Part shown: piece after piece, positions 36,458 through 58,428 of the stretch
Numbering within the stretch: the stretch's first letter is position 1
How the letters are laid out: every line of letters starts with the position of its first letter
NCBI GenBank assembly: GCA_964389455.1
Contig: CAYMEE010000001.1
Coordinates: forward strand, 83,891-147,890
Length of the DNA: 64,000 nt
Direction of reading: 5' to 3'
From: an uncultured Methylophaga sp.
Lineage (GTDB): Bacteria > Pseudomonadota > Gammaproteobacteria > Nitrosococcales > Methylophagaceae
Translations under genes and position numbers: made by a program
The notes under the pieces: generated by a model
The model's database searches: none
Told to the model about the DNA's origin: nothing
Seen by the model: the letters and a program-made list of their open reading frames with translations, nothing else

Positions 36458-36461
36458 ACTT

Positions 36462-38798: not shown

Positions 38799-39853
38799 TG
38801 GATATCCTGCTCGATCACATTCTGCCCACATTGCTCAAAATCATGTTGATTGTGGGGCCGCTGATGCTGGCGGTGGCCTATCTGACCTATGCCGAACGCA
38901 AAGTGATTGGCTATATTCAGACCCGGATCGGGCCTAACCGGGTTGGTCCCTGGGGACTGCTGCAACCGATTGCCGACGGCCTCAAGCTGTTGATGAAAGA
39001 GGTCATCTTTCCGGCGCGCTCCAATCTGTACCTGTTTCTGATTGCCCCGGTGCTTGCCATTGGCCCGGCTCTGGCGGCCTGGGCGGTGATTCCCTTCGAT
39101 GCCGAACTGGTACTGGCCGATATTAACGCCGGTTTGCTGTATGTGCTGGCGATTACCTCAATGAGTGTTTATGGGGTAGTGATTGCCGGCTGGGCTTCGA
39201 ACTCCCGTTATGCCTTCCTCGGTGGCCTGCGCAGTGCAGCCCAGGTAGTGTCCTACGAGATCGCGATGGGCTTTGCCCTGGTGGGGGTGCTGGTGGCGGC
39301 CGGCAGTCTGAATCTGAGTGAAATCGTGCTGGCACAGCAGGGCGGGATTCTGCACTGGTACTGGCTACCGTTGTTGCCGCTGTTTGTGGTTTATTTTGTA
39401 TCCGGCGTTGCCGAAACCAACCGCGCGCCGTTTGATATCGCCGAGGGGGAATCGGAGATCGTGGCCGGTTTCCATGTGGAATATTCGGGTATGGCCTTCG
39501 CCGTTTTCTTCCTGGCCGAATATGCCGACATGATCCTGATTTCTATTCTGGCGGCGACCCTGTTTATGGGCGGCTGGTTATCGCCTTTTGAGGGCATACC
39601 GGTTCTGGAAGGTTTATTTTCCTGGGTGCCGGGCCTGATCTGGTTGCTCGCCAAGACCGCTTTTTTCCTGTTTATTTACCTGTGGCTACGGGCTACGTTC
39701 CCGCGTTATCGTTATGATCAGATTATGCGTCTGGGCTGGAAAGTGTTTATCCCCGTCACCTTGGTGTGGCTGGTGATTATTTCTATCGCTCAGGTAATGG
39801 ATATTGGTCCTTGGTTTACAGAAACAGCAGCATTGGCTGCGGGAGGGGCGTGA
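38798..39853 (+). CDS. nuoH: NADH-quinone oxidoreductase subunit H
   Basis: 351 aa and polytopic. Motifs are [19 protein letters not shown] and AETNRAPFD. Confidence 0.96.
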
Positions 39854-40341
39854 TGCGTCAGATACGCCATTTCTTCAAAAGCTTTTTCCTGTGGGAGTTG
39901 ATACAGGGGCTGCGGCTGACCGGCCGTTATCTGTTTGCCCGTAAAGTGACGGTGCAATACCCGGAAGAGAAAACCCCACAATCGCCGCGTTTCCGGGGGC
40001 TGCATGCCTTGCGGCGTTATCCCAACGGTGAGGAGCGCTGCATTGGTTGCAAATTGTGCGAGGCGGTTTGCCCGGCACTGGCAATCACCATTGATACCGA
40101 GCCGCGTGATGATGGGACCCGGCGTACCACTCGTTACGATATTGATTTGTTTAAATGCATTTACTGTGGTTTCTGCGAAGAGTCCTGTCCAGTGGACTCA
40201 ATCGTTGAAACCCGCCAATTCGAGTTTCATTTTGAAGCGCGCGGCGACCACATTATTACCAAGGACAAGTTGCTGGCGGTCGGGGATAAATATGAAAAAC
40301 AAATCGCTGCAGACAGGGAGGCGGATGCACCGTATCGCTAG
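39853..40341 (+). CDS. nuoI: NADH-quinone oxidoreductase subunit I
   Basis: The start is trimmed to the ATG at 39853, which overlaps the nuoH stop. Two CxxCxxCxxxCP ferredoxin motifs are present ([24 protein letters not shown]). Confidence 0.95.
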
Positions 40342-40938
40342 ATGAATTCGCTGATTTTTTACAGTTTTGCTGCCATTTTAATCTTTGCCGCCGTGATGGT
40401 GATTACCGTTCGTAATCCCGTCAAGGCAGCTTTGTTTCTGGTATTGGCTTTTTTCACCAGTGCCGGTATCTGGCTGATGCTGCATGCTGAGTTTCTGGCG
40501 ATTAGCCTGGTGCTCGTTTATGTCGGCGCAGTACTGGTGTTGTTCCTGTTCGTGGTGATGATGCTGGATATTGATGTCGCACCGCTGAAAGAGGGTTTTG
40601 CCCGTTATTTGCCGCTGGGCATTCTGGTGGCGGCGCTGATTGTGGTAGAGATGATCACGGTACTCAATGCACCGGCCTTTAATATTGCCGCGCCTGAAGT
40701 GGTGGAAGAGAGCAACACCAAGCAACTGGGTCGCTTGCTCTACACCGTTTATGTGTATCCATTCGAGATTGCCTCGGTGATTCTGACGGTGGCGATTGTC
40801 GCCGCGATTACCCTGACTCTGCGCGAGCACAGTCGCAAACTGCAGGATATCGGTAAACAGGTTGCCGTGCGCCGTGAAGACCGTGTGCGTCTGGTTAACC
40901 TGCGCAAAAAACAGGATGAAGGAGACCAAGCCTCATGA
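40342..40938 (+). CDS. nuoJ: NADH-quinone oxidoreductase subunit J
   Basis: 198 aa with five TM helices. Assignment rests on operon position. Confidence 0.9.
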
Positions 40939-41240
40939 TTGTGCTTTCGGACTATCTTATCCTGGCGGCGCTGCTGTTCAGTCTGGCAGTGGCCGGTATT
41001 TTTCTGAACCGAAAAAACATCATCATTCTGTTGATGTGTATTGAACTGATGCTGTTGGCCGTGAACCTCAACTTCATTGCTTTCTCGCATTTCTCCGGGG
41101 ATCCGGCGGGGCAGGTGTTTGTCTTCTTTATTCTGACCGTGGCTGCCGCCGAAGCTGCCATTGGCCTGGCCATTCTGGTGCTGCTGTTTCGTAATCTCAG
41201 CACCATTAATGTGTCTGATCTCGACAGGCTGAAGGGGTAG
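40935..41240 (+). CDS. nuoK: NADH-quinone oxidoreductase subunit K
   Basis: 101 aa with three TM helices. The [15 protein letters not shown] motif is present. Confidence 0.93.
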
Positions 41241-41243
41241 TTG

Positions 41244-43184
41244 ATGAAAAGTTTGCTGCTCGCCATCGTTCTTGCCCCGTTGATTGGCAGCATTATTGCC
41301 GGTTTTTTCGGTAATCGAATCGGCCGTGACTGGTCGCACCGTGTCACCATTGCCGGGGTTGGCATCGCCTTCCTGCTGTCTTTGTGGGTGTTCAAGCTGG
41401 TGGTGGCCGATGGCGTTTATTTCAATGACAGTGTCTATCAATGGTTGCAGGCCGGGTCACTGACACTGGAAATCGGCTTTATGGTCGATTCCCTGACTGC
41501 CGTGATGATGGCGGTAGTGACCTTCGTGTCGCTGATGGTACATATCTACACCATCGGTTACATGCACGATGATGACGGTTACTGCCGTTTCTTCAGTTAT
41601 ATCTCGCTGTTTACCTTCGCCATGCTGATGCTGGTGATGGCCAACAACTTCATGCAGCTTTTCTTCGGCTGGGAAGCTGTGGGGCTGGTGTCTTACCTGT
41701 TGATTGGCTTCTGGTACAAAAAGCCGACCGCGATCTATGCCAACCTCAAGGCCTTTCTGGTCAACCGTGTCGGTGACTTCGGCTTCCTGCTCGGTATCGC
41801 GGCGGTGCTGATGTATGCCGGTAGTCTGGATTATGTTCAGGTATTCACCCAGGCCCCGACCATGGCCGAAAAATCGATAGCCCTGTTTGGTGATGCCCAG
41901 TGGTCGGTGATTACCGTGACCTGCATCCTGCTGTTTATCGGTGCGATGGGTAAATCGGCCCAGGTACCTTTACATGTCTGGCTGCCTGATTCAATGGAAG
42001 GCCCGACGCCAATATCCGCGCTTATCCATGCCGCGACGATGGTCACTGCGGGGATCTTTATGGTGGCGCGTATGTCACCGCTGTTTGAGCTGTCTGAAAC
42101 CGCGTTGTCTTTCATTCTGATAATCGGTGCCGTCACCGCCTTGTTTATGGGCCTGCTGGGCCTGGTGCAGCATGACATCAAACGCGTGATTGCCTATTCC
42201 ACGTTGTCACAGCTTGGCTATATGACTGTGGCGCTGGGCGCCTCGGCTTATGCCGCCGGAATCTTCCATCTGCTAACCCATGCTTTTTTCAAGGCCCTGT
42301 TATTTCTGGCGGCAGGCTCGGTCATTATCGCCCTGCATCATCAACAGGACATTCGGCATATGGGTGGCCTGAAAAAGTATATGCCAATTACTTACTGGAC
42401 CAGCCTGATTGGTTCACTGGCTTTAATCGGATTTCCCGGCCTGGCTGGATTTTTTTCCAAGGATGCCATTATCGAAGCCGTGCATGCTTCTGAAATCGCC
42501 GGCAGTGATTTTGCCTACTTTGCCGTACTGGTCGGGGTGTTTGTCACCGCGCTCTACAGTTTCCGGCTGTTTTTCCTGGTGTTCCATGGCAAAGAACGTT
42601 TTGACAGCCATGGCCATGCGCCGCATGAATCACCCAAGGTGGTCACCGTGCCACTGATTCTGCTGGCGATACCGTCGGTGCTGGCCGGTTATTTTATTGG
42701 TGATGTGGTGTTCGGCCGTTTCTTTGGCAATGCCATTTTTGTCGCCGGGCCGCATCATGTGCTGGGTGAACTGGGCAGCCATTATCACGGTGTCTGGGCA
42801 TTTATGCTGCATGGCCTGCAGGCGCTGCCATTCTGGCTGGCACTGGCCGGCGTTGCGATGGCCTGGTATTTGTATCTGCACCGGCCAGAAATACCGGGCA
42901 TGCTTAAGGACAAATTGCATGGCCTACACCGCTTGCTTGAAAATAAATATGGTTTTGACGATTTCAATGACAAAGTCTTCGCCGGAGGTTCACGCGGACT
43001 CGGCGGACTGTTGTGGCGGGTCGGTGACCGTTTCCTGATAGATGGTGCGATTGTAAATGGCTCTGCCAAGTCGGTTTACTGGCTGGCCAGGTTTGTGCGC
43101 CATGTGCAGTCGGGTTATCTGTATCACTATGCATTTGCAATGATTGTGGGGGTATGGCTGCTGCTGACCCTGTTTGTGGGTTAA
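41244..43184 (+). CDS. nuoL: NADH-quinone oxidoreductase subunit L
   Basis: About 646 aa and antiporter-like. The ATG at 41244 follows GAAGGGG. The TTG at 41241 is the longest start. Confidence 0.95.
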   Translation: MKSLLLAIVLAPLIGSIIAGFFGNRIGRDWSHRVTIAGVGIAFLLSLWVFKLVVADGVYFNDSVYQWLQAGSLTLEIGFMVDSLTAVMMAVVTFVSLMVHIYTIGYMHDDDGYCRFFSYISLFTFAMLMLVMANNFMQLFFGWEAVGLVSYLLIGFWYKKPTAIYANLKAFLVNRVGDFGFLLGIAAVLMYAGSLDYVQVFTQAPTMAEKSIALFGDAQWSVITVTCILLFIGAMGKSAQVPLHVWLPDSMEGPTPISALIHAATMVTAGIFMVARMSPLFELSETALSFILIIGAVTALFMGLLGLVQHDIKRVIAYSTLSQLGYMTVALGASAYAAGIFHLLTHAFFKALLFLAAGSVIIALHHQQDIRHMGGLKKYMPITYWTSLIGSLALIGFPGLAGFFSKDAIIEAVHASEIAGSDFAYFAVLVGVFVTALYSFRLFFLVFHGKERFDSHGHAPHESPKVVTVPLILLAIPSVLAGYFIGDVVFGRFFGNAIFVAGPHHVLGELGSHYHGVWAFMLHGLQALPFWLALAGVAMAWYLYLHRPEIPGMLKDKLHGLHRLLENKYGFDDFNDKVFAGGSRGLGGLLWRVGDRFLIDGAIVNGSAKSVYWLARFVRHVQSGYLYHYAFAMIVGVWLLLTLFVG

Positions 43185-43193
43185 GGGACTGAC

Positions 43194-44705
43194 ATGTTTG
43201 CAGAGTTACCTTTACTGAGTGTACTAATCTGGCTGCCGATTCTGGGCGGCATTATCGCGATTATGCTGGGCGACCAGCGGAATCTGCTGAAACCGTTCGC
43301 GCTGGGCATCGCCACCGTCACCATGTTGTTGTCATTCGGCCTCTACACCGGCTTTGACAGCAACACACATCAGATGCAGTTTGTCGAAAAGCTGCCGTGG
43401 ATAGAGACTTTCAATGTTTTCTATCACCTTGGTGTTGATGGTTTTTCGATGCCGCTCATTATTCTGACCACGATTTCCACCTTGCTGGTGGTGGTCGCTG
43501 CCTGGGAAGTGATTCAGTACCGGCCCAGTCAGTACCTGGCCGCTTTTCTAATCATGGAAGGCCTGATGATCGCCGTGTTCTCAGCGTTGGATGCGGTGCT
43601 GTTTTATGTGTTTTTTGAAGCTATGCTGATACCGCTGTTTCTGGTGATTGGCATTTGGGGTGGTCCGAACCGGGTTTATGCGACGCTGAAGTTCTTTCTC
43701 TACACCTTCTTCGGATCGGTGTTTCTGCTGGTGGCGCTGCTGTATCTGCGCCATGTCAGTGACAGTTTTGCCATTCTCGATTTCCATGATGTTGCGCTGA
43801 GTCTGGATGAGCAGATCTGGCTGCTGTTGGCGTTCCTGATTGCCTTTGCGGTCAAGGTGCCGATGTGGCCGGTGCATACCTGGCTGCCGGATGCCCACGT
43901 GGAGGCACCGACTGGTGGTTCGGTGATACTGGCGGCGATTACGCTTAAAATCGGCGGTTATGGTTTCCTGCGTTTTGCCTTGCCGATCGCGCCGGATGCC
44001 AGCCTGGCACTGGACTGGCTCATTATCACCCTGTCTCTGATCGCGGTGGTGTATATCGGTTTTGTCGCGCTGGCACAGACCGATCTGAAAAAGCTGATTG
44101 CCTACTCCAGTATTGCCCATATGGGTTTTGTGACCCTGGGTCTGTTTATCGTGTTTGATATATTTGCCAATGCGTCAACGGGGAGTGGGGCGGTACTGGC
44201 GATTGAAGGCGCGATGGTGCAGATGATTTCACACGGTTTTATCTCAGCAGCGATGTTCCTTGCGGTTGGCGTCTTGTATGACCGTATGCATACGCGGGAA
44301 ATCAATGCCTATGGTGGGGTGGTCAACACCATGCCTAAATTTGCAGCGTTTGCCGTGTTTTTTGCCATGGCCAATGCCGGTCTGCCGGGTACCTCCGGTT
44401 TTGTCGGCGAATTTATGGTGATTCTGGCAGCTTTCCAGGCCAACTTCTGGTTTGCTTTTCTGGCTGCGACGACCCTGATTCTGGGCGCGGCTTATACCTT
44501 GTGGATGGTCAAACGGGTGTTTTTCGGTGAGGTTGCCAATGATGAAGTGAAGGCACTGTCCGATATCAACCGCCGTGAATTCTGGATGCTGGCATCACTG
44601 GCGGTAATTGTGCTGCTGATCGGTGTCTGGCCGGATCCGTTACTGGGCGTGATGCATGCATCGGTCGAGCATTTACTGACCCAAGTGTCGCAATCCAAGC
44701 TGTAG
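43194..44705 (+). CDS. nuoM: NADH-quinone oxidoreductase subunit M
   Basis: 503 aa, antiporter-like subunit ([11 protein letters not shown]). Confidence 0.95.
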
Positions 44706-44722
44706 AGAGAGGATCAGACTTC

Positions 44723-46153
44723 ATGTTTCAGGTTCCCAATATGCTGTTTGCACTGCCGGAGATGCTGATGCTGGGCATGGCCTGTGTCATTTTGCTGGTG
44801 GTAGCATTCACCGGGGCGCGCAGAACACAATGGGTTTACGGTCTCAGCCAGCTGACCCTGTTGGCAACTGCCGTAGTGGTGGTCTGGTTTATTGGTGAGG
44901 GCGGCCTGACCTTTGCCGACACTTACATCAAAGATAATCTCAGCGACTTGCTTAAACTGTTTATCTGCCTGGTGAATATGCTCGTACTGCTGTATTCACA
45001 GGCCTACCTCAAAGCCCGCCGGTTATTGCAGGGCGAGTTTTTTGTATTGGCTATTTTCTCCACGCTAGGCATGCTGATCATGGTGTCGGCTTATCATATG
45101 CTGACCCTGTACCTGGGTCTGGAACTGATGTCACTGTGCCTCTATGCCATGGTGGCGATGCAGCGAGACTCCGGGGTGGCGACCGAAGCTGCCATGAAGT
45201 ATTTCATTCTTGGCAGTATCGCCTCGGGCATGCTGCTTTATGGCATGTCGATTATTTATGGTGTTACCGGCAGCCTGTCGATGAATGAGATTGCCCAGGC
45301 CGTGGCCACGGGCAATGGCGATGAGACGATTTTGAGCTTTGGTATTGTCTTCCTGGTTATCGGGATAGGCTTTAAATTCGGGGCCGTGCCGTTTCATATG
45401 TGGTTACCGGATGTCTATCATGGCGCGCCCACTGCGATGACCTTGTTTATTGCAGCGGCTCCGAAAATTGCGGCCTTTGCCATGATCATTCGATTATTGG
45501 CAGAAGGGCTGATAGACTTGCAGCATCACTGGCAGGATATGCTGGTTCTGCTCGCGGTATTGTCGATGATTGTCGGCAATGTCGTGGCGATTGCGCAGAG
45601 CAATCTGAAACGTATGCTGGCCTATTCCACTATTTCCCACGTCGGTTTTCTGCTGATGGGGGTATTATCCGGTACACAGGAAGGTTTCTCGGCGGCGCTG
45701 TTTTATACGCTGATTTATGCCCTGATGACACTGGGTGCTTTCGGTATGATCTTGCTATTGAGCCGGCAGGGCTTTGAAGCTGAGAATATCGATGATTTCA
45801 AAGGGCTCAGTGAGCGCCAGCCCTGGTTTGCGCTGATGATGCTGATCCTGATGTTTTCCATGGCCGGGATTCCGCCACTGGCGGGGTTTTATGCCAAGTT
45901 AACTGTGATTAAAGCGGTGATAGATGTTGACCTGCTTTTTGTAGCGCTGGTTGCGGTGCTCACCTCCGTTATCGGTGCCTTCTATTACCTGCGGGTTATT
46001 AAGGTCATGTATTTCGACAAACCGGTGGTAGACCACAAGCTGGAAGCAGGCAGCATGATGCAGATTATGCTGAGTGCCAATGCGCTGATGGTGCTGGGTC
46101 TGGGGATTGTTCCCGGCATTTTGATGAAAATCTGTACCATTGTTTTTGCCTAG
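44723..46153 (+). CDS. nuoN: NADH-quinone oxidoreductase subunit N
   Basis: 476 aa, antiporter-like subunit ([14 protein letters not shown]). Confidence 0.95.
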
Positions 46154-49289: not shown

Positions 49290-49901
49290 ATGACTAAAGT
49301 GCTGGTGGTTTATTACAGTATGTACGGACACATAGAAACGATGGCTAAAGCGGTGGCAGAAGGTGCCGGAAAGGTCGAAGGTACCGAGGTGACGCTCAAG
49401 CGTGTGCCTGAACTGATGACAAAAGAGCAGGCGGAAAACGCTGGCGCCAAACTGGATCAGGATGCACCGCTGGCAAGCCCACAGGAACTGGCTGATTATG
49501 ATGCCATTATTTTCGGCACACCTACCCGATACGGCAATATGTGCGCTCAGATGCGTCAGTTTCTGGATCAGACCGGCGGGCTCTGGGCTAAAGGTAAACT
49601 GATAGGTAAGGTCGGCAGCGTGTTTACCTCGACCGGAAGCCAGCATGGCGGTCAGGAGACCACATTGACCTCTTTTCACACCAATCTGTTTCACTTCGGC
49701 ATGGTGGTGGTTGGTGTGCCTTATTCGGTGCCTGAGCTCACCAATATGGACGAAATCACGGGGGGTACCCCTTATGGCGCAAGCACGCTGGCAGGCGCTG
49801 ATGGTAGCCGTCAGCCGACTGAAAATGAAGTCAAGATTGCTCGTTTCCAGGGTGAGCACGTGGCCAAAGTCGCCAGAAAGCTTCAGCGTGGGCTGGATTA
49901 G
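49290..49901 (+). CDS. wrbA: NAD(P)H:quinone oxidoreductase WrbA
   Basis: 203 aa with a flavodoxin-like N-terminus ([17 protein letters not shown]) and the [10 protein letters not shown] motif. Confidence 0.92.
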
Positions 49902-50004: not shown

Positions 50005-50081
50005 CGGAGTGTAGCTCAGCCTGGTAGAGCACTGCCTTCGGGAGGCAGGGGGCGGAGGTTCAAATCCTCTCACTCCGACCA
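50005..50081 (+). tRNA. proK: tRNA-Pro (anticodon CGG)
   Basis: Manual cloverleaf: acceptor stem CGGAGTG/CACTCCG, anticodon stem CTGCC/GGCAG with loop TTCGGGA, T-arm GGAGG-TTCAAAT-CCTCT, discriminator A, and an encoded CCA. It is close to E. coli proK. Confidence 0.92.
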
Positions 50082-50183: not shown

Positions 50184-50771
50184 TCAGTCAAATTGCCAGC
50201 GTAACCAGCCCAGGAAGACATTGCCTTTGTTACGGGTACCCGGTACATACGTTGCCTGAAAAGTCAGGCTTTTATAGCCTATTGACCCCAGTGGCAGCAC
50301 ATAGGGAACAGGCACATAATTCCAGTTTTCACGCATAGTCATCCCTGCGGTCAGGCCCAGTCCGAGCCGAAAGTCCTGCTGCTGTTCAAGTGGTCGCCAT
50401 ATTTTTTCGTAGCCATAGCCAGCCACCGGTTCCCACTCATCCTGCGAATCCCGAAAAGCCATCAAATACAGGCCATGCCAGTTGCCATCGTTATCATAGC
50501 GCGTCAGGCCATAGCCGGCGCCCCATGCCTGTTCATTGTATGCTTTGCGGCGATCATTATCCCAGGCGAAAGGCACATGCCAGCTGAACAAAGGCAAATA
50601 AAGTTCATGATGATCGGGCGAGTGCCATGTCTCAATGCTGCTGGTCTTCAGCCGATCCCAGAGTATGACGGGCAGGGGAGATGTGTTCGAAGCAGGTTTA
50701 TCTTCTACCTGATCGGCAAAGAGGGGGAAACACGCCAATAACAGAAACAGCGCTTGTTTGCCTGAATGCAT
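50184..50771 (-). CDS. pagP: lipid A palmitoyltransferase PagP (outer-membrane beta-barrel)
   Basis: The ATG at 50771 lies 6 nt after AGGAGG. The protein is collinear with E. coli PagP. Examples are HELYLPLFSWHVPFAWD, YNEQAWGAGYGLTRYDNDGNWHGLYLMAFRDS, WEPVAGYGYE, NWNYVPVPYVLPLGSIGY, and TFQATYVPGT..GNV. Confidence 0.85.
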   Translation of the reverse strand: MHSGKQALFLLLACFPLFADQVEDKPASNTSPLPVILWDRLKTSSIETWHSPDHHELYLPLFSWHVPFAWDNDRRKAYNEQAWGAGYGLTRYDNDGNWHGLYLMAFRDSQDEWEPVAGYGYEKIWRPLEQQQDFRLGLGLTAGMTMRENWNYVPVPYVLPLGSIGYKSLTFQATYVPGTRNKGNVFLGWLRWQFD

Positions 50772-50906
50772 AGCCAACCTCCTGTGGATGTGACTATCAC
50801 GATTTCATCTTACGTCAGAAACTAAGCCTCTCAAAGCACGTCGAAAACCTGAATGTAGTCTAGAAATGAATTATTTAGTCAGGTATATAGAAAAAGGAGA
50901 ATGAGC

Positions 50907-51413
50907 ATGTTGCCTCAGCCAGCTAAGTCACCTAAGTCTGGCCATTTCTGCTTATGGCTCATGATGTTGGGGGTTATGAGTATGGCCAGTCTTGTCAGAG
51001 CGGAAGGTGATCTGACCCGTCAGGCACCGATAGAGGTGGAAGTGCAACTGGGTGTCGCTAACGAGCATAAATTCTCACCCAGTCACCTCGAGTTTGAAAC
51101 CGGCAAGCTTTATAAGCTGGTATTAATCAACAACAGCAAAGTTAAGCACTACTTTACGTCATATGGACTGGCGAAACGGGTATTTTCACGCAAGGTACAG
51201 GTGATGAAAGAAAGCGCTGAAGGCTTCAGTCGTACCGCTGAAATCAAGGGCGACATCAGCGAGATAGAGGTATTTCCGGGACATCGGGTTGAATGGTGGT
51301 TTGTACCCGTCCAGACCGGTGAACTGCATGACCTGCATTGTCATGTGGATGATGAGGCGTCAGGTATGACTCATGCTGAATTGGGGATGACGGGCAGCAT
51401 ACAGATTCGTTGA
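50907..51413 (+). CDS. secreted cupredoxin-like copper-binding protein
   Basis: The ATG at 50907 lies 7 nt after AAGGAG. The signal peptide ends in VRAEG. Candidate type-1 Cu ligands are KHYF ... LHCHV ... GMTG, in a beta-rich domain of about 130 aa. Confidence 0.6.
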   Translation: MLPQPAKSPKSGHFCLWLMMLGVMSMASLVRAEGDLTRQAPIEVEVQLGVANEHKFSPSHLEFETGKLYKLVLINNSKVKHYFTSYGLAKRVFSRKVQVMKESAEGFSRTAEIKGDISEIEVFPGHRVEWWFVPVQTGELHDLHCHVDDEASGMTHAELGMTGSIQIR

Positions 51414-51450: not shown

Positions 51451-52965
51451 TCAACTGGCCGTTTTCGCATCATCCTGGCTGACAAGGCTGCGTGCCTTTA
51501 ATTGTTCATAAATTACAAAGGCATCATTCAGGTAAGCTTCTCTCGCCGAGTTGCTGCTGTAATCACTGCGCTGAGGTTTCACCTCAAGCCGGGTTTGCTG
51601 CTGAATCAATTTGTCCGGGTGCTCCAGGTCAAGGAAAGCGGCCAGCTGAGTCAGTATTTTCTCAGGCTCCCGGCAGAGGGCATCATAGTCCAGAAAGACA
51701 ATATTCTGGTGCGTCTTATTCAATAGATGCCGGTAAGCACAAGTCCAGTAATAGAGCCAGAAGTTGATGTCAGAGGCAGGTGGTAATTCATCCTGGTCCA
51801 GCCAGTTATCAAAATTAACCGGACGGAGATTGGCGCCAAAGTCAAAGTGTCCGATTCCAGCCATATAGTGGCGGGCAAAGGCATCATTCTCATGTATGGA
51901 TAAAAAGCGGAGATGCTGGCGCTGCAAAGACGCTGTGTGACTGAGGGGGTGTCTGAACGGCACCACTATTTTGGCTGTGGGCAGGTGTCTGAGCAGCCAG
52001 TCGATGCGGGCGATATTCAGATTGTTTTTGGATATATAGCGAATCGCTGGTGTGGGCGAATTCCTGTTATGAAGGTGAACCACCTTGCGCATGTGGTGAC
52101 GGAAAAAGCGCAGAAAGTCTTCTTTGTCGCCCGTCTCCCAAGGGCTGATATGGTGTTTGTGGTAGGGCTTTTCCCAATGGGCCATCCAAAGCATTTCCTC
52201 AAAAGCTTCCGGGCTGTCTTCATTGACCAGCATGCCGTCACCATGTGCCCGTTCCTGTGCTTCTCCGGTGGTCTGCATCGACTTGGTCAGTCGCTGCCAG
52301 AACAGGGGGGTAAACACGAATGGCATATAGCGATAGCTATGTGTAGCAAATTCACCCGTGGCATAACATAGCTCTAGCAGCAGCGTGGTCCCGGCCCGTG
52401 GCAGCGAAGTGATGAACACCGGGTGATCGGCTGACTCGGCACTGGTCTGTTTGAGGTAAAGCTTGTCTTCCAGGTCCGCCAGCACCAGTTGTGCCGGAAC
52501 ACTGGCAAAGGCCAGGTTGTGCAGCAGGCGGGTACTGCCCGAATAGCGGTTTTCAAAAGACGACGCTGTCTTGCTTTGGCGATGTTGCCGACGAAATACG
52601 AGCCAGAAATAGATGATGGTGATGACCGTGGCAGTCAGCAGGAACGGCCATGAAGAGGCCATCAGCATGGTGGCTTCCAGCGATATCAGGCCGACCCTAT
52701 CCAGTCCCCACAGAATCACGACTGGTAAACCTGCAGCCATGCTGGTTCCCAGCAGCAGCCCGGCAATAGCTTTAATCAGGCTGAGGCTGTGACGACGTAA
52801 GTTCTGTTCCTTTTCATCATCGTCGATGTCCCGGCGGCTGATTTCAAACAGGGACAGCCGGGACAGGCTCAGCGCGTTTCTGGCTTGCGCCATCAAGTTC
52901 AGTATTCTGAACAGTATCAGAAAGCCGATGACCAGAAAGGAGGCGCCCAGGAGTTCGATTAGCAT
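51451..52965 (-). CDS. membrane-anchored PAPS-type sulfotransferase family protein
   Basis: 504 aa. Three predicted N-terminal TM helices span about residues 1-125. A soluble domain follows with a 5'-PSB-like loop (SLPRAGTTLLLE) and a 3'-PB-like segment (RYISKNNLNIARIDWLLRHL). Confidence 0.65.
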   Translation of the reverse strand: MLIELLGASFLVIGFLILFRILNLMAQARNALSLSRLSLFEISRRDIDDDEKEQNLRRHSLSLIKAIAGLLLGTSMAAGLPVVILWGLDRVGLISLEATMLMASSWPFLLTATVITIIYFWLVFRRQHRQSKTASSFENRYSGSTRLLHNLAFASVPAQLVLADLEDKLYLKQTSAESADHPVFITSLPRAGTTLLLELCYATGEFATHSYRYMPFVFTPLFWQRLTKSMQTTGEAQERAHGDGMLVNEDSPEAFEEMLWMAHWEKPYHKHHISPWETGDKEDFLRFFRHHMRKVVHLHNRNSPTPAIRYISKNNLNIARIDWLLRHLPTAKIVVPFRHPLSHTASLQRQHLRFLSIHENDAFARHYMAGIGHFDFGANLRPVNFDNWLDQDELPPASDINFWLYYWTCAYRHLLNKTHQNIVFLDYDALCREPEKILTQLAAFLDLEHPDKLIQQQTRLEVKPQRSDYSSNSAREAYLNDAFVIYEQLKARSLVSQDDAKTAS

Positions 52966-52970
52966 GTCAG

Positions 52971-53198
52971 TCAGCCGGGCTGATCAGGGTTGTCAGTTTC
53001 AGTCTGGCGTGCCCGCCATTTTTTACGTAAACGCTTAATCGGATACCAGAGAAAACCAAAAAACAGCACCACGACCACGGCGATGACGGCAATGATGGCG
53101 CCGATGGCTGTGAGTCCGCCGCCAGGGCCGATATAGGCATGGGCCGGCTGCAGCAGATTAGATAACAGTAAGATAAAAGTAGCGAGAGCTCTAATCAT
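52971..53198 (-). CDS. 75-aa membrane protein with YIGPGGG motif
   Basis: It has a signal-like segment ending in AHA, then YIGPGGG, one TM helix (LTAIGAIIAVIAVVVVLFFGFLW), and a basic tail (KRLRKKWRARQ). It lies 5 nt upstream of the sulfotransferase gene and 18 nt downstream of the ASST-like gene. Confidence 0.6.
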   Translation of the reverse strand: MIRALATFILLLSNLLQPAHAYIGPGGGLTAIGAIIAVIAVVVVLFFGFLWYPIKRLRKKWRARQTETDNPDQPG

Positions 53199-53216
53199 AG
53201 TCGGATTCCATTATTG

Positions 53217-54554
53217 TCAGTTGGAAGAGTCGATTTCAGATGTTGGCGCTGATTGTGAAGTCTTTTTCAGTTCGTTGAAAAACGCAGGGGAGAAATGGTC
53301 AGACAGCCTCTGTGCGGTTTCGACAAAACCCACGACGCCTTCCCTGACAATATTGTTGTATTCCCAGATGATTTGACCGTCAGGTGTGACCTCAATCACC
53401 CTGCCGTTACGCGAGTCAGAAATCAGAATATTGTCATTACTCAGCCATTCATGCTTACCCAGAAGGAAAGAGAAAAAGGGTTCTTCTTCAGTGCCTGTAT
53501 AGGCAACGGAGACTTCACCGCTGGGAGCATCCTGAAGCAGAATTCTGCTTTGCACACCTGATTCCGCCGGGGCTGAGTCATTATTGTCATAAATTGAAAT
53601 GGTATCGCCATCGACAAAGTCCGGATCATGCTGACGCACAAACGGCCCGATGGAGACGAACTTCTTCTGCCAGTTGTCTGTGTCAAAGACCAGCACAGTA
53701 TTGATATTACGCATTGACAGCATGATGTCGCCCGGCCCGAAAAAGCCGGGTTCCATATTCTCGGGGAACAGCTCAATATCATTCAAATGCAGCGTGTCGC
53801 CCTTGGATTCGGGGTGGAGGCCGAGCGAAGAGAGATAGAGCAGGCCCTGAAGCTGATTGTCCTGAAACAGGGTATGCAAGGAGATTTCCTGAAGAATTTT
53901 GCCATTATCCGGATCGACTTCCAGAATGGTGAACTCATCAAAATTGGGTTTATAGAAGGGGAGATCATCCAGAGGCTTGTCGTGGGTAATCATACCCGGC
54001 ACCCAGAGGTGGCCATCTTCTGACTGGTAAAGTGAATGATGAGTGCGATATGGCAGGCGCCAGATGACCTCATTGTTGGCGTCGACACGCACCATACCCA
54101 GTCCATCATAATTAAAGACTAAACTGCCATCCTTCATCAGCACCATGCCATGTATATGGCTGCCAGGTGGTTCCTTGGGGTTCAGGTGATCAGGCAGGTG
54201 GTTTGCATTAGGCCAGATATCAAACCAGTCGAGTGACCAGTGATGAATCACATTACCATCGGCGTCTATGACCTCCGCGATGAGTTTGTCATCCTTGCCG
54301 ACCCGGCTAATCAGAGTGAGTCCCGGTGCCATTTTGTCAGGATAATTGTTCACGATTTTACGGGTTTTGTCCGTTTCCCAGTACTGGAACGGCAGGCTAT
54401 CGTCGGTCAACTTCAGTGCTTCCTTGAGTCCGTTCTGCATAAAATAGACGAAATCTGCCGGAAACCAGTGATGACGATGACTGAAAAAGCCATAGACATA
54501 AATGGCGATGATGAGTGAAATGAGGAAAAGCCACTTGGCGATTTTTTCAGTCAT
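53217..54554 (-). CDS. membrane-anchored arylsulfotransferase (ASST)-like beta-propeller protein
   Basis: 445 aa with a single N-terminal TM helix (KWLFLISLIIAIYVYGFF). Repeated propeller-type motifs are HLNDIE, GDIMLSMRNINTVLVFD, RQHDPDF, ISIYDNN and GRVIEVTPDGQIIWEY, which I associate with the ASST family. This was not verified by search. Confidence 0.55.
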   Translation of the reverse strand: MTEKIAKWLFLISLIIAIYVYGFFSHRHHWFPADFVYFMQNGLKEALKLTDDSLPFQYWETDKTRKIVNNYPDKMAPGLTLISRVGKDDKLIAEVIDADGNVIHHWSLDWFDIWPNANHLPDHLNPKEPPGSHIHGMVLMKDGSLVFNYDGLGMVRVDANNEVIWRLPYRTHHSLYQSEDGHLWVPGMITHDKPLDDLPFYKPNFDEFTILEVDPDNGKILQEISLHTLFQDNQLQGLLYLSSLGLHPESKGDTLHLNDIELFPENMEPGFFGPGDIMLSMRNINTVLVFDTDNWQKKFVSIGPFVRQHDPDFVDGDTISIYDNNDSAPAESGVQSRILLQDAPSGEVSVAYTGTEEEPFFSFLLGKHEWLSNDNILISDSRNGRVIEVTPDGQIIWEYNNIVREGVVGFVETAQRLSDHFSPAFFNELKKTSQSAPTSEIDSSN

Positions 54555-54733: not shown

Positions 54734-56848
54734 TTAGTGCTGTGTTACCAAGCCGTTATCGCGTAATTTCTGGATATGCGTATGTTGTGATAGCAAGGCC
54801 ATCATCTCAGCAGGGTCCAGCCAGGATTGGAGCTCCTGCAAAGTGGCTGCCTGCTCCAGCTTCCATTTTGCTGTGACAGTGGGCGCATGAAATTCCCCCG
54901 GCTTGTGTGAATCGAGTAAAGGCAGTTGTGCCAGATGCCATGAGAACAGGGCATGGTTATTCTCAAGACATTCCAGAGGCGAATCCACGGGCGGCACTGG
55001 CTGTAAATGTTTTGTGTTGTCGCGAAAGGTCTTCACAATGTTGCTTGGCTGCTTTTCTTCCGGCGCCCTGAATAGACCCAGCCAGGTGAAAAGCTGTCCT
55101 CGCTTTTTGCCACCGCTGAGCCATGACAATGGAATAGACAGCATCAGGCAGCCAGCGATGGGAATTAACCATAAAAACAGCTTGAAACTGATCATATAGG
55201 CAAGTCCGCCAAGGGCGACACCAAATACCGTGTGGCCCCGATGAGCCAGGTAAGCCTGCTGTAATGAGAGTGCACCATCATCGCGGGATTGTGGACTCCA
55301 GCCGCTGTCTTTACCTCGGAAGATTTTATACACCACAGTGCATTGAGCCAGCATCAGAATGGGCGCGTATAGTGCAGAAAAAACGATTTCAAACAAGGTA
55401 CTGGCTGTCAGCAGAAGCGGTCCACCGAAATGCCTGCATTTTCTGAAGTTGACCAGCGCACTGAACCAGCCGAACAGCTTGGGTGCCAGTAGCACAAACA
55501 TGGAGATGACGAACAGTCTCAGCGCCCGCTCCGCATCAAAGACCGGCCAGGTCGGGAACAGTGAGGGGTCAGAAAAATATTCCGGCCTGACAAACTGGGC
55601 CTGTACGGCGATGGCAAGGCCGGTGATTATCAGTGCCAGCCAGAATACGGCACTAAGATAAGACATAATACCGGAGAGAATATGCAGCCGGGTGGGCACC
55701 ACCAGATCATGGGCCAACAGCAGGCGGCTATGTTGCAGGTTGCCCTGACACCAACGGCGGTCACGGGTCAACACCGTATCAAGTGAGGGGGGCGCCTCCT
55801 CATAAGAGCATTGGATATCGGTATCAAATCTGACGCCCCAGCCTTTGCGTCTCAGCATGGCGGCTTCAATAAAGTCATGACTGAGGATATGACCACCGAA
55901 AGGCGGTGTACCAGGCAATAGAGGCAGGCCACAGGACTCGGCAAAGGCGCGGGTTCGGATAATGGCATTGTGACCCCAGAAATTGGATGACAACCCATGC
56001 CATGCTGACAGGCCAGCTGCGTATATAGGCCCGTAACAGTGATTGGCAAATTGTTGTAAACGCCCATACAAGCTGCTGGCATTGATGATCGTGGGCAGGG
56101 TTTGAATCAGGCCCATCTCGGGTGCAGCAGCCAGACGTCGCGACAAGGAGATCATGCTGTCAGCACTCATAATACTGTCGGCATCGAGCACAATCATGGC
56201 TTCGTAATCACCGCCCCAATTAGTCACCCAGTCAGCGATATTGCCGGCCTTGCGTTCTTTGTTATTGGCCCGGCGCCGGTAATAAACCGGACAGGCATGT
56301 TGGTCGTTATCGAATAGCGGCATCAGGGCCTGTTCTTCAGCTAGCCAGGCCTCAGCCTGATTGGTATCACTGAGAATAAAAAAGGCATATTTACCGGGCG
56401 CTTTAATCAGCAATTCCTGCCGCATGGTTCTGACTGCTGCGGCGATACGAGCGGGCTCTTCCTTGTAAATCGGTACCAGAATCGCTGTTCTGAAAGGGGC
56501 ATCAGCAGCCTCAGGTACACGCAGAAGCCTGGGCTTAAGCGTTAAAAGAAATCCCAGAAAGGCCTGCGAAAAAGCAAAAGAAATCCAGATAAAGTTGATA
56601 CTGAACAGGCTCAGGAACAGCCATTGCAACAGCGTGACGGTAGTGGTACTCAACACGCTGTACATCTCGCTGATGCCATAAGCTGACAATGCCAGTGTAG
56701 AGACCAGGATAAAAAAACGGGCCAGCAATGTGCTCAGGGGGAAAAGGAACTGCCGCTGATGCCGTTTTAATGTAAACCCTTTTTCATTGACCCGGTGGCG
56801 AGGCATATCCAGCGGGGCAAGCTCAGGGAGTGCGCGCTCTGCTTTCAT
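54734..56848 (-). CDS. opgH: glucans biosynthesis glucosyltransferase H
   Basis: 704 aa. It is a polytopic GT2 enzyme with DADS, ILSHDFIEAA and QRxRW (RDRRWCQGNLQH) motifs. It overlaps opgG by 4 nt. Confidence 0.92.
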   Translation of the reverse strand: MKAERALPELAPLDMPRHRVNEKGFTLKRHQRQFLFPLSTLLARFFILVSTLALSAYGISEMYSVLSTTTVTLLQWLFLSLFSINFIWISFAFSQAFLGFLLTLKPRLLRVPEAADAPFRTAILVPIYKEEPARIAAAVRTMRQELLIKAPGKYAFFILSDTNQAEAWLAEEQALMPLFDNDQHACPVYYRRRANNKERKAGNIADWVTNWGGDYEAMIVLDADSIMSADSMISLSRRLAAAPEMGLIQTLPTIINASSLYGRLQQFANHCYGPIYAAGLSAWHGLSSNFWGHNAIIRTRAFAESCGLPLLPGTPPFGGHILSHDFIEAAMLRRKGWGVRFDTDIQCSYEEAPPSLDTVLTRDRRWCQGNLQHSRLLLAHDLVVPTRLHILSGIMSYLSAVFWLALIITGLAIAVQAQFVRPEYFSDPSLFPTWPVFDAERALRLFVISMFVLLAPKLFGWFSALVNFRKCRHFGGPLLLTASTLFEIVFSALYAPILMLAQCTVVYKIFRGKDSGWSPQSRDDGALSLQQAYLAHRGHTVFGVALGGLAYMISFKLFLWLIPIAGCLMLSIPLSWLSGGKKRGQLFTWLGLFRAPEEKQPSNIVKTFRDNTKHLQPVPPVDSPLECLENNHALFSWHLAQLPLLDSHKPGEFHAPTVTAKWKLEQAATLQELQSWLDPAEMMALLSQHTHIQKLRDNGLVTQH

Positions 56849-58428
56849 AATCGATCCGAAAATAAAGTGGGTTTAATCCAGCGATAAAGCCAGGTTTCGG
56901 TGAAGGCCTGTTGCTGCTTTTTCAATTGCACCCGGAACTCGATAACGTTGGCATCCTGATTATCAAAACTCAGAAAAACACGGGCGCCACCGGTTTCAGA
57001 ATTATGCTGGATGCGGGAATCCAGCAGTTGGCCCTGATCCAGTGAGACGTCGATACTAATGTCTTTGATATCTTTCGCCTTGATATTGCTGTAATCGATA
57101 ACGATTTCACGCTGATTGTCATTCAGGCGCAGGCCACTGGCACTTCTGATGACTTTTGTTTTGTCACTCAATGGTTTGAGGTTGTCAGGCCAGGTTAAAC
57201 GATAGGCGTAACGGTATTTCTGACCTTTTTTGAGGATCGCAGCCGGCCGCCAGTAAACAACGATATTGTCGTTGGTTTCGTTTTCAGAGGGAATCTCGAC
57301 TAATTGCAGCTGACCTTTCCCCCAGTCACCGAGGGGTTTGACCCAGACAGAGGGGCGCTTGTGATACATCGCTTCCAAATCCTGGTAGTGATGGAACTGT
57401 CGATTGCGCTGAATCAGTCCAAAGCCCTTCGGGTTTTCATCAATAAAGGCGCTTATCTGCAAGGAGTCAGGATTCGTCAATGGCCGCCAGAGCCGCTCAT
57501 TATTTCCCCGGACCACAGCCAGGCCCTCCGAGTCATGCACGGCCGGTCGGTAGTCGGGCTTATCAGCAGCCTGCATTTCACCATGCATAAACATTGAGGT
57601 CAGTGGCGCAATACCGACATGCTCAAGGTCCCGGCGAGGGAAAAGAATCACGTTCACATCCATTCTGGTGGGATTATCAGGATAAATACCAAAACGGTAG
57701 GCACCCGTGACGCCGGGGCTGTCGAGCAGGGCGTGCACTACGATGGCTTTCTGATCTTTGCCCGGCCGCTCAACCCAGAATCGTCTGAAGATGGGATGTT
57801 CTTCACCTTGTGGTTCAGCGACATCAATCGCGAGGCCACGGGCAGAAATCCCGTATAGTTGATCTTTGGACACTGCGCGGAAATAACTGGCACCCTGAAA
57901 AACCAGAAACTCGTCTTTGTAATCGGCACTGTTAAGCGGGAAATGCAGACGTATACCGGCATATTTTCCGACATCAGCCAAGATTTTAGCCATGGTCTCC
58001 CGGGGCACGCTGAACGAATCTTCAGTCAGACCCACCGAATAAGCCATACCGTCTTCAACAATATCTATATCAATCAGGTGTTCGTACAGATAGCCCGGCG
58101 CAAACAACTGAATCGAAAACAGCGCAGGACTGTTACCCCATATGGCAGCCCGTTGCTGGAAGTTGATTTTACGATAGGCAGAATAGCTGAGATTGGTCAG
58201 CGACTCTGGCGCTGTTTGGGGTGCCTCAAAGGCTTCTTCCGAAAGGGCTTTAGCAAGCTCAATCACAGTCTGATGGGTGAACGGCGTGCCTGTTTGAGAA
58301 TCAGTTAAGCTTGGCTTGGCATGACCCAAGGGCAGGTTGAATAGCTGCGTCAGGAGGATCATGAATATACCGGCGGTGAGGAATCTGAAGGGTGGTTGCT
58401 TGGTGTTGTGCTTGAACACGCGGTTCAA
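56845..58428 (-). CDS. opgG: glucans biosynthesis protein G (periplasmic)
   Basis: 527 aa with a Sec-type signal peptide and no twin-arginine motif. MdoG-family motifs are present (YAGIRLHFPLN, EFLVFQGASYFRAV, RGLAIDV, FRRFWVERP). Confidence 0.9.
   Translation of the reverse strand: MNRVFKHNTKQPPFRFLTAGIFMILLTQLFNLPLGHAKPSLTDSQTGTPFTHQTVIELAKALSEEAFEAPQTAPESLTNLSYSAYRKINFQQRAAIWGNSPALFSIQLFAPGYLYEHLIDIDIVEDGMAYSVGLTEDSFSVPRETMAKILADVGKYAGIRLHFPLNSADYKDEFLVFQGASYFRAVSKDQLYGISARGLAIDVAEPQGEEHPIFRRFWVERPGKDQKAIVVHALLDSPGVTGAYRFGIYPDNPTRMDVNVILFPRRDLEHVGIAPLTSMFMHGEMQAADKPDYRPAVHDSEGLAVVRGNNERLWRPLTNPDSLQISAFIDENPKGFGLIQRNRQFHHYQDLEAMYHKRPSVWVKPLGDWGKGQLQLVEIPSENETNDNIVVYWRPAAILKKGQKYRYAYRLTWPDNLKPLSDKTKVIRSASGLRLNDNQREIVIDYSNIKAKDIKDISIDVSLDQGQLLDSRIQHNSETGGARVFLSFDNQDANVIEFRVQLKKQQQAFTETWLYRWIKPTLFSDRL

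Follow-up and report, generated by a model that had tools for sequence, protein, structure and literature searches.

Sulfotransferases that depend on 3'-phosphoadenosine 5'-phosphosulfate (PAPS) need the PAPS of the cytoplasm, and to our knowledge there is no known route by which bacteria deliver activated sulfate outside this compartment. Arylsulfate sulfotransferases (ASSTs) take the sulfuryl group solely from aryl sulfates and pass it on via a histidine in ping-pong fashion; according to a 2026 review, it is unknown which donors and acceptors the bacterial enzymes use in nature and which physiological roles they have. Here, we analysed a stretch of 64,000 nucleotides (nt) from an uncultured Methylophaga sp. 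(assembly GCA_964389455.1, contig CAYMEE010000001.1, positions 83,891 to 147,890 of the forward strand), called the window below, which holds a module of three genes that pairs a PAPS-type sulfotransferase, predicted to face the cytoplasm, with an ASST-like enzyme, predicted to face the periplasm. The module is a concrete, genetically compact candidate both for the natural role of ASSTs and for the delivery of sulfate outside the cytoplasm.

The closest described system is the sulfation of caprazamycin/liposidomycin, for which Tang et al. 2013 (as cited in PMC4257720) established a two-step route with the PAPS-dependent Cpz8, the triketide pyrone carrier of Cpz6 and the ASST-type Cpz4, an enzyme that prefers sugar hydroxyls as acceptors. 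In the window, too, a PAPS-dependent sulfotransferase appears to be encoded together with a PAPS-independent enzyme of the ASST type, whose best structural match is Cpz4, and the module may in principle work like the Cpz system. It differs in having no conserved carrier synthase such as a type III polyketide synthase (PKS), in that its enzymes are predicted to be split between the two sides of the membrane and both tethered to it, in the addition of a module of three transmembrane (TM) helices (the 3-TM module) and of a small protein whose mature form should begin with tyrosine (the Tyr-1 protein), and in its position outside an antibiotic gene cluster and its spread over many phyla. An earlier, sequence-only reading of the window had proposed a trans-membrane sulfuryl relay and knew of no described bacterial system with this architecture; given the soluble Cpz8/Cpz4 precedent, that statement has to be narrowed to the membrane split, the 3-TM module and the Tyr-1 protein, and our literature searches returned no description of the module, the small protein or the 3-TM family.

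A second relative is the assT-dsbL-dsbI cluster of uropathogenic Escherichia coli, which likewise encodes a periplasmic beta-propeller, whose active-site residues recur in the ASST-like protein within matching sequence contexts, and likewise consists of three genes including one for a membrane protein. The E. coli enzyme (EcAST), however, is a soluble dimer of 598 amino acids (aa) with an N-terminal beta-sandwich, and it is partnered by disulfide oxidoreductases where the module has a PAPS enzyme. Strain CFT073 has assT-dsbL-dsbI, whereas in the window the ASST-like gene is accompanied by those of the small protein and the sulfotransferase; genes for DsbL or DsbI were not found in the window, and we rejected membership of the module in this cluster type because no DsbL/DsbI pair stands beside the ASST-like gene.

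Other comparisons concern the PAPS-type enzyme. The RaxST/RaxX pair is a bacterial case of tyrosine sulfation of a co-encoded peptide, and with it and with the human protein-tyrosine sulfotransferases TPST1/2 the module shares the PAPS motifs PR(S/A)GTTL and R-x7-S, as well as a co-encoded polypeptide with an invariant Tyr. TPSTs, in contrast, work in the Golgi lumen, at acidic Tyr sites and with PAPS imported by a transporter, whereas the enzyme of the module is predicted to be cytoplasmic and the Tyr to end up outside; unlike RaxST/RaxX, the module has no RaxB-type peptide-export ABC system. Golgi PAPS transporters and luminal sulfotransferases also bring activated sulfate made solely in the cytosol to extracytosolic acceptors, but eukaryotes move the nucleotide donor itself, and the module has no transporter of the nucleotide-sugar type, so that, with the PAPS enzyme kept inside, a different species would have to cross the membrane. 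The mycobacterial enzymes Stf1 and Stf9, finally, belong to the same Sulfotransfer_3 family and are top fold matches of the catalytic domain, but these soluble enzymes lack dedicated partners of the 3-TM, small-protein or ASST kind.

Two predicted sulfotransferases and a small Tyr protein

The genes, domains and motifs of the module, with the evidence for each, are as follows (ORF, open reading frame; AF2, AlphaFold2):

53217-54554, minus strand: ASST-like gene, ORF (i), 445 aa (Pfam, AF2, Foldseek)
54483-54533, minus strand: single TM anchor of the ASST-like protein, residues W8-F24 (AF2 helix 3-28)
53628-54041, minus strand: ASST-like active-site block H172, H256-x-N258, R282, H309 (invariant residues)
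52971-53198, minus strand: gene of the small bitopic protein, ORF (ii), 75 aa (ORF list, homologues)
53115-53135, minus strand: Y-I-G-P-G-G-G motif of ORF (ii), with the Tyr22 codon at 53133-53135 right after the A-H-A signal-peptidase site
51451-52965, minus strand: 3-TM plus sulfotransferase gene, ORF (iii), 504 aa (Pfam, AF2, Foldseek)
52579-52965, minus strand: 3-TM module, residues 1-129 of ORF (iii) (AF2 helices, Lys plus Arg counts)
51454-52539, minus strand: PAPS-type sulfotransferase domain, predicted cytoplasmic, residues 143-504, TPST/Stf-like (Pfam, AF2, Foldseek)
52381-52404, minus strand: 5'-phosphosulfate-binding loop LPRAGTTL, residues 188-195 (conservation, TPST alignment)
51928-51954, minus strand: 3'-phosphate-binding segment R338...S346, F-R-H-P-L-S-H-T-A-S (conservation, spacing)

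Coordinates and junction sequence agree that the three ORFs are co-directional and separated by 18 nt between ORF (i) and ORF (ii) and by 5 nt between ORF (ii) and ORF (iii), and every motif quoted in the sequence-only reading was found (HLNDIE, GDIMLSMRNINTVLVFD, RQHDPDF, ISIYDNN, GRVIEVTPDGQIIWEY, YIGPGGG, SLPRAGTTLLLE, RRQHRQSK, MTEKIAK). The three genes are real and not chance ORFs, since each has hundreds of homologues and their arrangement recurs in many phyla; the closest homologues are named Methylophaga.

ORF (i) matches the Pfam families Arylsulfotran_2 (PF14269, 2.6e-32, 112.8 bits against a cut-off of 27) and Arylsulfotrans (PF05935, 1.8e-10, 40.9 bits against 24.2); all four Pfam matches of ORF (i) and ORF (iii) exceed their gathering thresholds. 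An AF2 model built from 23 homologues (predicted local distance difference test, pLDDT, 87.4) has an N-terminal helix at residues 3-28 and a second helix, followed by an all-beta propeller. Its five best Foldseek matches in the PDB are all Cpz4 or EcAST structures (E-values 3.5e-14 to 8.7e-11, template-modelling scores of about 0.52-0.54), with Cpz4 nearest (9kf6 at 3.5e-14, and 9kf4), EcAST second (4p04 at 3.8e-11, 3ett, 4p05) and generic propellers ranking below. Identity to EcAST in the fold search is about 13%, and the beta-sandwich domain present in EcAST is missing. Profile and fold searches were required for this assignment, as single-sequence searches of the PDB gave nothing useful; together, the Pfam hidden Markov models and the propeller fold bear out the placement of ORF (i) in the PAPS-independent ASST family.

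The active site of EcAST comprises the sulfo-histidine nucleophile His436 together with His252, His356, Asn358, Arg374 and Thr501 (2026 review). Taking the EcAST sequence from the assT gene of CFT073, with mature numbering equal to precursor numbering minus 27, we compared sequence motif contexts, as opposed to superposing structures in three dimensions, and obtained the following correspondences:

EcAST His252, ADAT-H-ES: ORF (i) PYRT-H172-HS
EcAST His356/Asn358, NWA-H-V-N-SI: ORF (i) DTL-H256-L-N258-DI
EcAST Arg374, ILSS-R-HQGVV: ORF (i) MLSM-R282-NINTV
EcAST His436, YTQ-H-TAW...GTLTIFDNG: ORF (i) VRQ-H309-DPDF...DTISIYDNN

The equivalence leans on these contexts because the hhalign comparison of the family alignment (A1) with E. 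coli ASST was weak (probability 0.5), although H172 was paired with His252 there as well; an equivalent of Thr501 was not identified in ORF (i) by the motif comparison. H172, H256, N258, R282 and H309 are invariant in 205/205 ASST-like homologues, the motifs SxRN, QHD and S(V/I)xDN of ORF (i) align to Cpz4, and an LPNGN motif is common to both proteins. H309, within RQHDPDF, is thus the predicted sulfo-histidine nucleophile, and we conclude that the product of ORF (i) is probably able to catalyse ASST-type transfer and belongs with the short, Cpz4-like enzymes.

In ORF (iii), residues ~181-474 match Sulfotransfer_3 (PF13469, 1.7e-17, 64.9 bits against a cut-off of 27), with Sulfotransfer_1 as a second match at 5e-7. 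The AF2 model (pLDDT 87.6) has a disordered linker at residues 131-139 and then a sulfotransferase fold, for which the best Foldseek matches are Stf9, TPST1, TPST2 and Stf1 (E-values 2e-5 to 5e-5), the mycobacterial structures 2z6v (1.9e-5) and 2zq5 (3.1e-5) being at the top; TPST1 is also the best PDB sequence match of the family profile (1e-4). The LPRAGTTL loop aligns to GVPRSGTTLM of TPST, and the family alignment (A2) shows no variation at L188, P189, R190, A191, G192, T194 and L195 and at least 90% conservation at T193. Further along the domain, R338, P340, H343 and S346 are invariant in the same alignment, and R338-x7-S346 has the same R-x7-S spacing as MVRDGRASVHS of TPST1, in an aligned segment that is itself sub-threshold (about -1 bit). 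With both PAPS-binding motifs present and TPST1, TPST2 and Stf as the best PDB matches, the enzyme looks PAPS-dependent, and its earlier description as a sulfotransferase with a PAPS-binding-type loop is upheld by Pfam, fold and TPST loop alignment alike.

The three N-terminal TM helices that the sequence-only reading had attributed to this protein are present (AF2 helices 2-21, 24-43, 49-90, 96-103 and 106-129), but the picture of a single "3 TM + sulfotransferase" protein is refined to one of two modules, which are encoded by separate genes in many genomes. In many loci, the 3-TM module is a stand-alone gene of ~125 aa between the small gene and the sulfotransferase gene, and the split sulfotransferase genes begin right at the catalytic domain, without a signal peptide and with overlaps of 1-8 nt. 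An exhaustive search with the 3-TM module returned 381 representative clusters, of which the best 150 were mostly ~125-aa stand-alone proteins and otherwise the N-termini of ~500-aa proteins; five of seven matches of intermediate length that we read were truncated fusions with PRAGTT. Among the matches listed, no fusion partner other than the sulfotransferase was seen, and the module has no Pfam or NCBIfam family. One of its loops, predicted to be cytoplasmic, carries a D-x-x-K-E motif.

Charge bias places the two enzymes on opposite sides of the membrane. In 120 homologues of the 3-TM module, the mean number of Lys plus Arg is 0.04 in the N-terminal tail, 7.3 in loop 1, 0.87 in loop 2 and 3.1 after the third helix, and this positive-inside pattern, together with the signal-less split forms, leads us to predict an N-out module and a cytoplasmic catalytic sulfotransferase domain. 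For the anchor of the ASST-like protein, the homologues average 2.67 Lys plus Arg before the TM helix versus 1.59 in the 15 aa after it. Two Cys columns of the ASST-like family also co-occur (both present in 142 sequences, neither in 17, which include Methylophaga, and one in 4), and such a covarying pair fits a periplasmic disulfide; the ASST-like domain is predicted to be extracytoplasmic, facing the periplasm. Charge bias, split forms and Cys pair thus agree computationally with the topology proposed earlier, with the PAPS domain inside and the ASST-like domain outside, and nothing in the topology prediction puts both catalytic domains on one side.

Between these two enzymes, ORF (ii) encodes a protein with the layout of a Sec-type signal peptide ending in A-x-A, a Y-[IV]-G-P-G-x-G motif, one TM helix and a cytoplasmic end with GF-x-W-[YF]-P-x-K-R; the signal-like segment, YIGPGGG motif, single TM helix and basic tail reported before are all visible in the sequence and are conserved in homologues, which occur in nearly every locus that has the sulfotransferase. 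The family has no Pfam or NCBIfam entry, and its source names, where given, are all "hypothetical". The Tyr is invariant in 122/122 distinct homologues (119 with GPGxG and 3 with GPGxx), whereas the second aromatic residue, in WYP, varies between Y, F, L and Q. The residue at position -1 to the Tyr is A, G, S or C in 118/119 homologues, and the residue at -3 is A in 94/119 and V in 13/119; LLQPAHAYIGPGGGL is an example of the peptide across the cleavage site. Since the cleavage site is conserved exactly before the Tyr, the mature protein should start with Tyr22, at the outer membrane surface.

Co-inheritance and locus variants

Conservation of the module was assessed from two sides. Seeding with the ASST-like protein, at one genome per species, gave 79 loci, of which 63 had enough flank to be evaluated, and 45 of these 63 contain the full adjacent triad. 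Seeding with the sulfotransferase in metagenomes gave 27 evaluable loci, partly redundant; all 27 have the small gene beside and upstream of the sulfotransferase, and 23 also have the ASST-like gene. The order small gene to sulfotransferase is kept in 65/68 triads, and overlaps of 1-4 nt are common within the module; the small gene and the sulfotransferase would be translationally coupled, apparently 1:1. The co-conservation predicted for the three genes was, in short, recovered by both seedings.

Hosts of the module span at least 8 phyla and include Pseudomonadota (Methylophaga, Vibrio, Alteromonas, Roseobacter and others), Verrucomicrobiota, Planctomycetota, Bacteroidota, Cyanobacteriota, Acidobacteriota, Gemmatimonadota and Desulfobacterota, with one named ASST-like homologue in Chloroflexota. 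Cultured hosts are Vibrio breoganii, Vibrio brasiliensis LMG 20546, Alteromonas sp. KUL42, Desulfobacter curvatus DSM 3379 and Roseovarius litorisediminis CECT 8287; in V. breoganii the triad stands alone amid housekeeping genes. All-against-all clustering of the flanking ORFs of the 79 loci yielded no other conserved neighbours, only the generic families short-chain dehydrogenase/reductase (SDR), response regulator and ABC ATPase, and in particular no conserved PKS or other biosynthetic gene beside the module and no conserved glycosyltransferase, flippase or lipid-carrier gene.

In four of the other evaluable ASST-seeded loci (L009, L016, L055 and L069) the module is incomplete or altered. 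L009 and L016 keep the ASST-like, small and 3-TM genes together with the sulfotransferase 5-8 kb off, and L069 has the ASST-like and small genes only. Either enzyme can also be exchanged. In L055 (11263-14109), from a Halieaceae metagenome-assembled genome, the ASST-like and small genes and a divergent 3-TM-like gene precede the gene of a Sulfotransfer_1 enzyme (PF00685, 2.2e-38), whose N-terminus has a hydrophobic segment of its own, and an Acyl_transf_3 protein comes next; here the inner PAPS enzyme has undergone non-orthologous replacement, with Sulfotransfer_1 in place of Sulfotransfer_3. In three metagenomic loci, an N-anchored protein of ~800 aa (812 aa in the case cited) with a C-terminal Sulfatase domain (PF00884, ~1e-44) takes the place of the ASST-like gene:

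L133, 2-2317: sulfatase-family replacement, directly upstream of the small gene
L158, 2-2128: the same
L159, 2950-5388: the same, adjoined by a 717-aa Phosphodiest protein at 813-2966

The nucleophile region of this protein, SQATKTRPSIPSLMTS, has what we take to be the Thr-type motif of EptA/LtaS transferases (EptA/MCR-1) and not the Cys/Ser formylglycine motif, and the protein may be an alternative outer enzyme that handles sulfuryl groups. Both replacements keep the sulfuryl theme on their side of the membrane.

As a side observation, four loci have a HAD-UbiA prenyltransferase fusion beside their ASST-like genes, in a gene set whose resemblance to a lipid-sugar pathway of the decaprenyl-phosphoribose type hints at an envelope-glycan context:

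L009, 12078-14327: HAD-UbiA locus, with SDR
L016, 12119-15198: HAD-UbiA locus, with SDR
L046, 11417-12868: HAD-UbiA locus
L073, 2766-6264: HAD-UbiA locus, with SDR

A proposed sulfuryl relay and its competitors

The best explanation overall, which we hold to be about as likely to be right as wrong, is a self-contained, four-part sulfation machine across the inner membrane, encoded here in three genes. A TPST-like enzyme in the cytoplasm, tethered by a dedicated 3-TM module (and elsewhere partnered with it as a separate protein), would make an aryl sulfate ester from PAPS; this ester would reach the outer face of the membrane, where the anchored Cpz4/ASST-like propeller would take the sulfuryl group onto His309 in a ping-pong reaction and hand it to an acceptor outside the cytoplasm, which would most likely be a sugar hydroxyl or a phenol on a molecule of the envelope or a secreted one. 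The two-step logic of the Cpz system, with one step on each side of the membrane, is the simplest reading because of the predicted opposite sidedness of the enzymes and their obligatory partnership. If true, it would account for the sulfation of periplasmic or surface molecules by marine and soil bacteria, would supply a physiological donor for ASSTs, and might provide biocatalytic sulfation with an in vivo donor system driven by PAPS.

Our preferred carrier, put forward tentatively and as possible rather than probable, is a protein-bound tyrosine O-sulfate on Tyr22. The Tyr would be sulfated on the precursor of the small protein in the cytoplasm and then exported, and signal peptidase would expose the sulfated Tyr as the N-terminal residue at the membrane surface, where it would act as an anchored aryl sulfate on which the ASST-like enzyme draws. 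We favour this residue because it is the sole invariant phenol in the system, because an extra biosynthetic gene is not needed, because the inner enzyme is most like protein-tyrosine sulfotransferases, and because ASSTs act on tyrosine-containing peptides, those listed including Leu-enkephalin, dermorphin and kyotorphin, all three of which begin with Tyr. In addition, we infer that a protein of 75 aa is probably inserted post-translationally, which would leave time for cytoplasmic modification. A Tyr-sulfate carrier, if true, would make this the first bacterial pathway for sulfation outside the cytoplasm, and would answer in a new way the problem for which eukaryotes have Golgi PAPS transporters.

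Several points weigh against these proposals. Enzyme families, predicted opposite sidedness and co-conservation, all parts of the relay as it was proposed in the sequence-only reading, have held, and the relay is well motivated by them; the sulfuryl passage between the enzymes, its direction, its carrier and its final acceptor are what we infer from them. A sulfated Tyr-1 would be a single-use and costly carrier, at odds with the apparently 1:1 coupling of the small gene and the sulfotransferase; its A-x-A-Y-[IV]-G-P-G context is without the acidic residues typical of TPST substrates; and the invariant Tyr-GPG could be purely structural, e.g. an interfacial aromatic residue followed by a turn. 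At the level of loci, no outer enzyme lies near the small gene and sulfotransferase of L111 and L112, and 14/63 of the ASST-seeded loci are orphan ASST-like paralogues with neither the small gene nor the sulfotransferase nearby. Two of the orphan-bearing genomes also hold a full triad, L012/L017 (OY843751.1) and L014/L022 (CAXXMD010000003.1), where one inner donor system might serve several outer transferases; in both, the orphan lies ~0.4 Mb from the triad.

The main competing proposal keeps the relay but makes the carrier a small, membrane-soluble phenol, e.g. a respiratory quinol (these occur across the host phyla), which would be sulfated at the inner face, cross by way of the 3-TM module and small protein acting as a conduit or flippase, be unloaded outside by the ASST-like enzyme and return as the free phenol, so that the shuttle would be catalytic and allow multiple turnovers. 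Such a carrier would account for the strict co-occurrence of 3-TM module, small protein and sulfotransferase and for the fact that no conserved carrier-synthesis gene comparable to that of the type III PKS Cpz6 lies nearby, and it follows the established precedent of a small aryl carrier. We nevertheless consider it unlikely, as four TM helices in each protomer would be a small number for carrying a charged head group across, the best matches of the sulfotransferase are protein-tyrosine sulfotransferases, sulfated quinols are without direct evidence, and the invariance of a Tyr exactly at the signal-peptidase site would be left unexplained.

A relay may also be absent altogether, with the two enzymes working on one envelope target either in succession or each by itself. 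The inner enzyme would then sulfate a lipid-linked or exported precursor, and the outer one would move, trim or remove the sulfate, as a trans-sulfatase, editor or sulfatase-like enzyme, or, in a variant, would draw on environmental aryl sulfates as donors. Co-localisation would then require just a shared pathway, the orphan ASST-like paralogues would find a place, and ASSTs do hydrolyse in the manner of sulfatases when an acceptor is absent. An anchored sulfatase-family protein does stand in for the ASST-like protein in some loci, but its motif is of the Thr-type, transferase-like kind and not the Cys/Ser formylglycine one. Genes for a glycosyltransferase, flippase or lipid carrier are not conserved with the module, and if the outer enzyme were to strip an exported molecule of its sulfate and hand this on, a relay would exist after all; we regard enzymes working without a relay as decidedly improbable.

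The small protein might, alternatively, be the end product, its tethered N-terminal sulfotyrosine serving as a signal, receptor ligand or surface charge, with the two enzymes as writer and eraser or re-writer. The invariant Tyr, the TPST-like writer and the RaxST/RaxX precedent agree with this, yet seven exposed residues that are near-identical across phyla suit a machine part better than a signal, a conserved receptor or protease is not present, and a transferase-competent ASST active site would not be needed, which makes the proposal very unlikely. Least credible by far is a reverse flow, in which the outer enzyme would harvest environmental aryl sulfates and pass the sulfuryl group inward to PAP, making PAPS without ATP: PAPS-type aryl sulfotransferases are reversible with aryl sulfates, a property used for PAPS regeneration, and many hosts are marine, where sulfated phenolics occur, but seawater sulfate is abundant, so that scavenging gains little, an inward relay meets the same membrane-crossing problem, and the Tyr of the small protein cannot return to the cytoplasm.

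Surroundings of the module in the window

In the window, the relay candidate lies among housekeeping genes (e.g. nuo, EF-G and fpg), and its nearest neighbours are:

56845-58428, minus strand: opgG (MdoG match, 4.6e-179)
54734-56848, minus strand: opgH (MdoH NCBIfam model NF003958, 779 bits against a 419-bit cut-off)
50184-50777: pagP, downstream of the module
50005-50078, plus strand: tRNA gene (Rfam, 65.9 bits), between the WrbA-like flavodoxin gene and pagP
49290-49901: WrbA-like flavodoxin gene, neighbour of the tRNA gene

opgG-opgH lies directly upstream of the module on the same strand, with a gap of 179 nt to the ASST-like gene, in which we saw no convincing terminator; the sequence-only reading had left this neighbourhood unmentioned. 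This adjacency recurs only in L001, L003 and L080, from relatives that are 74-89% identical, and is absent from Methylophaga sp. OBS4 (L002) and every other taxon among the loci compared; with synteny limited to close Methylophaga relatives, we rejected opgGH as a conserved part of the module. It is better seen as local context and, as a local hypothesis, a possible acceptor pathway leading to sulfated periplasmic glucans. Glycans as the final acceptor, including periplasmic glucans in Methylophaga, are speculation, made plausible by the preference of Cpz4 for sugar hydroxyls and by the local opgGH context; a literature search for sulfated periplasmic glucans gave nothing, and, if true, they would be new.

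A scan for promoters and terminators gave counts not above those in shuffled sequence, and an Rfam scan of 49-60 kb found the one tRNA and nothing else. Beside the sulfotransferase gene and divergent from it, a 170-aa ORF at 50901-51413 (plus strand) has a signal-peptide-like N-terminal hydrophobic segment and a weak, below-threshold cupredoxin-like match (PF13473, 1.5e-4), and no counterpart was found in the related loci inspected. Finally, at 38000-46000 of the window the AT skew is strongly negative, down to -0.29, and coincides with large plus-strand ORFs at 36402-46153. The single ORF checked there, at 41241-43184, matches the complex I chain-5/Mrp-type membrane subunit domains PF00361 and PF00662, and the skew would be an ordinary effect of T-rich hydrophobic codons if the stretch is a block of nuo membrane-subunit genes, as the ORF sizes suggest.

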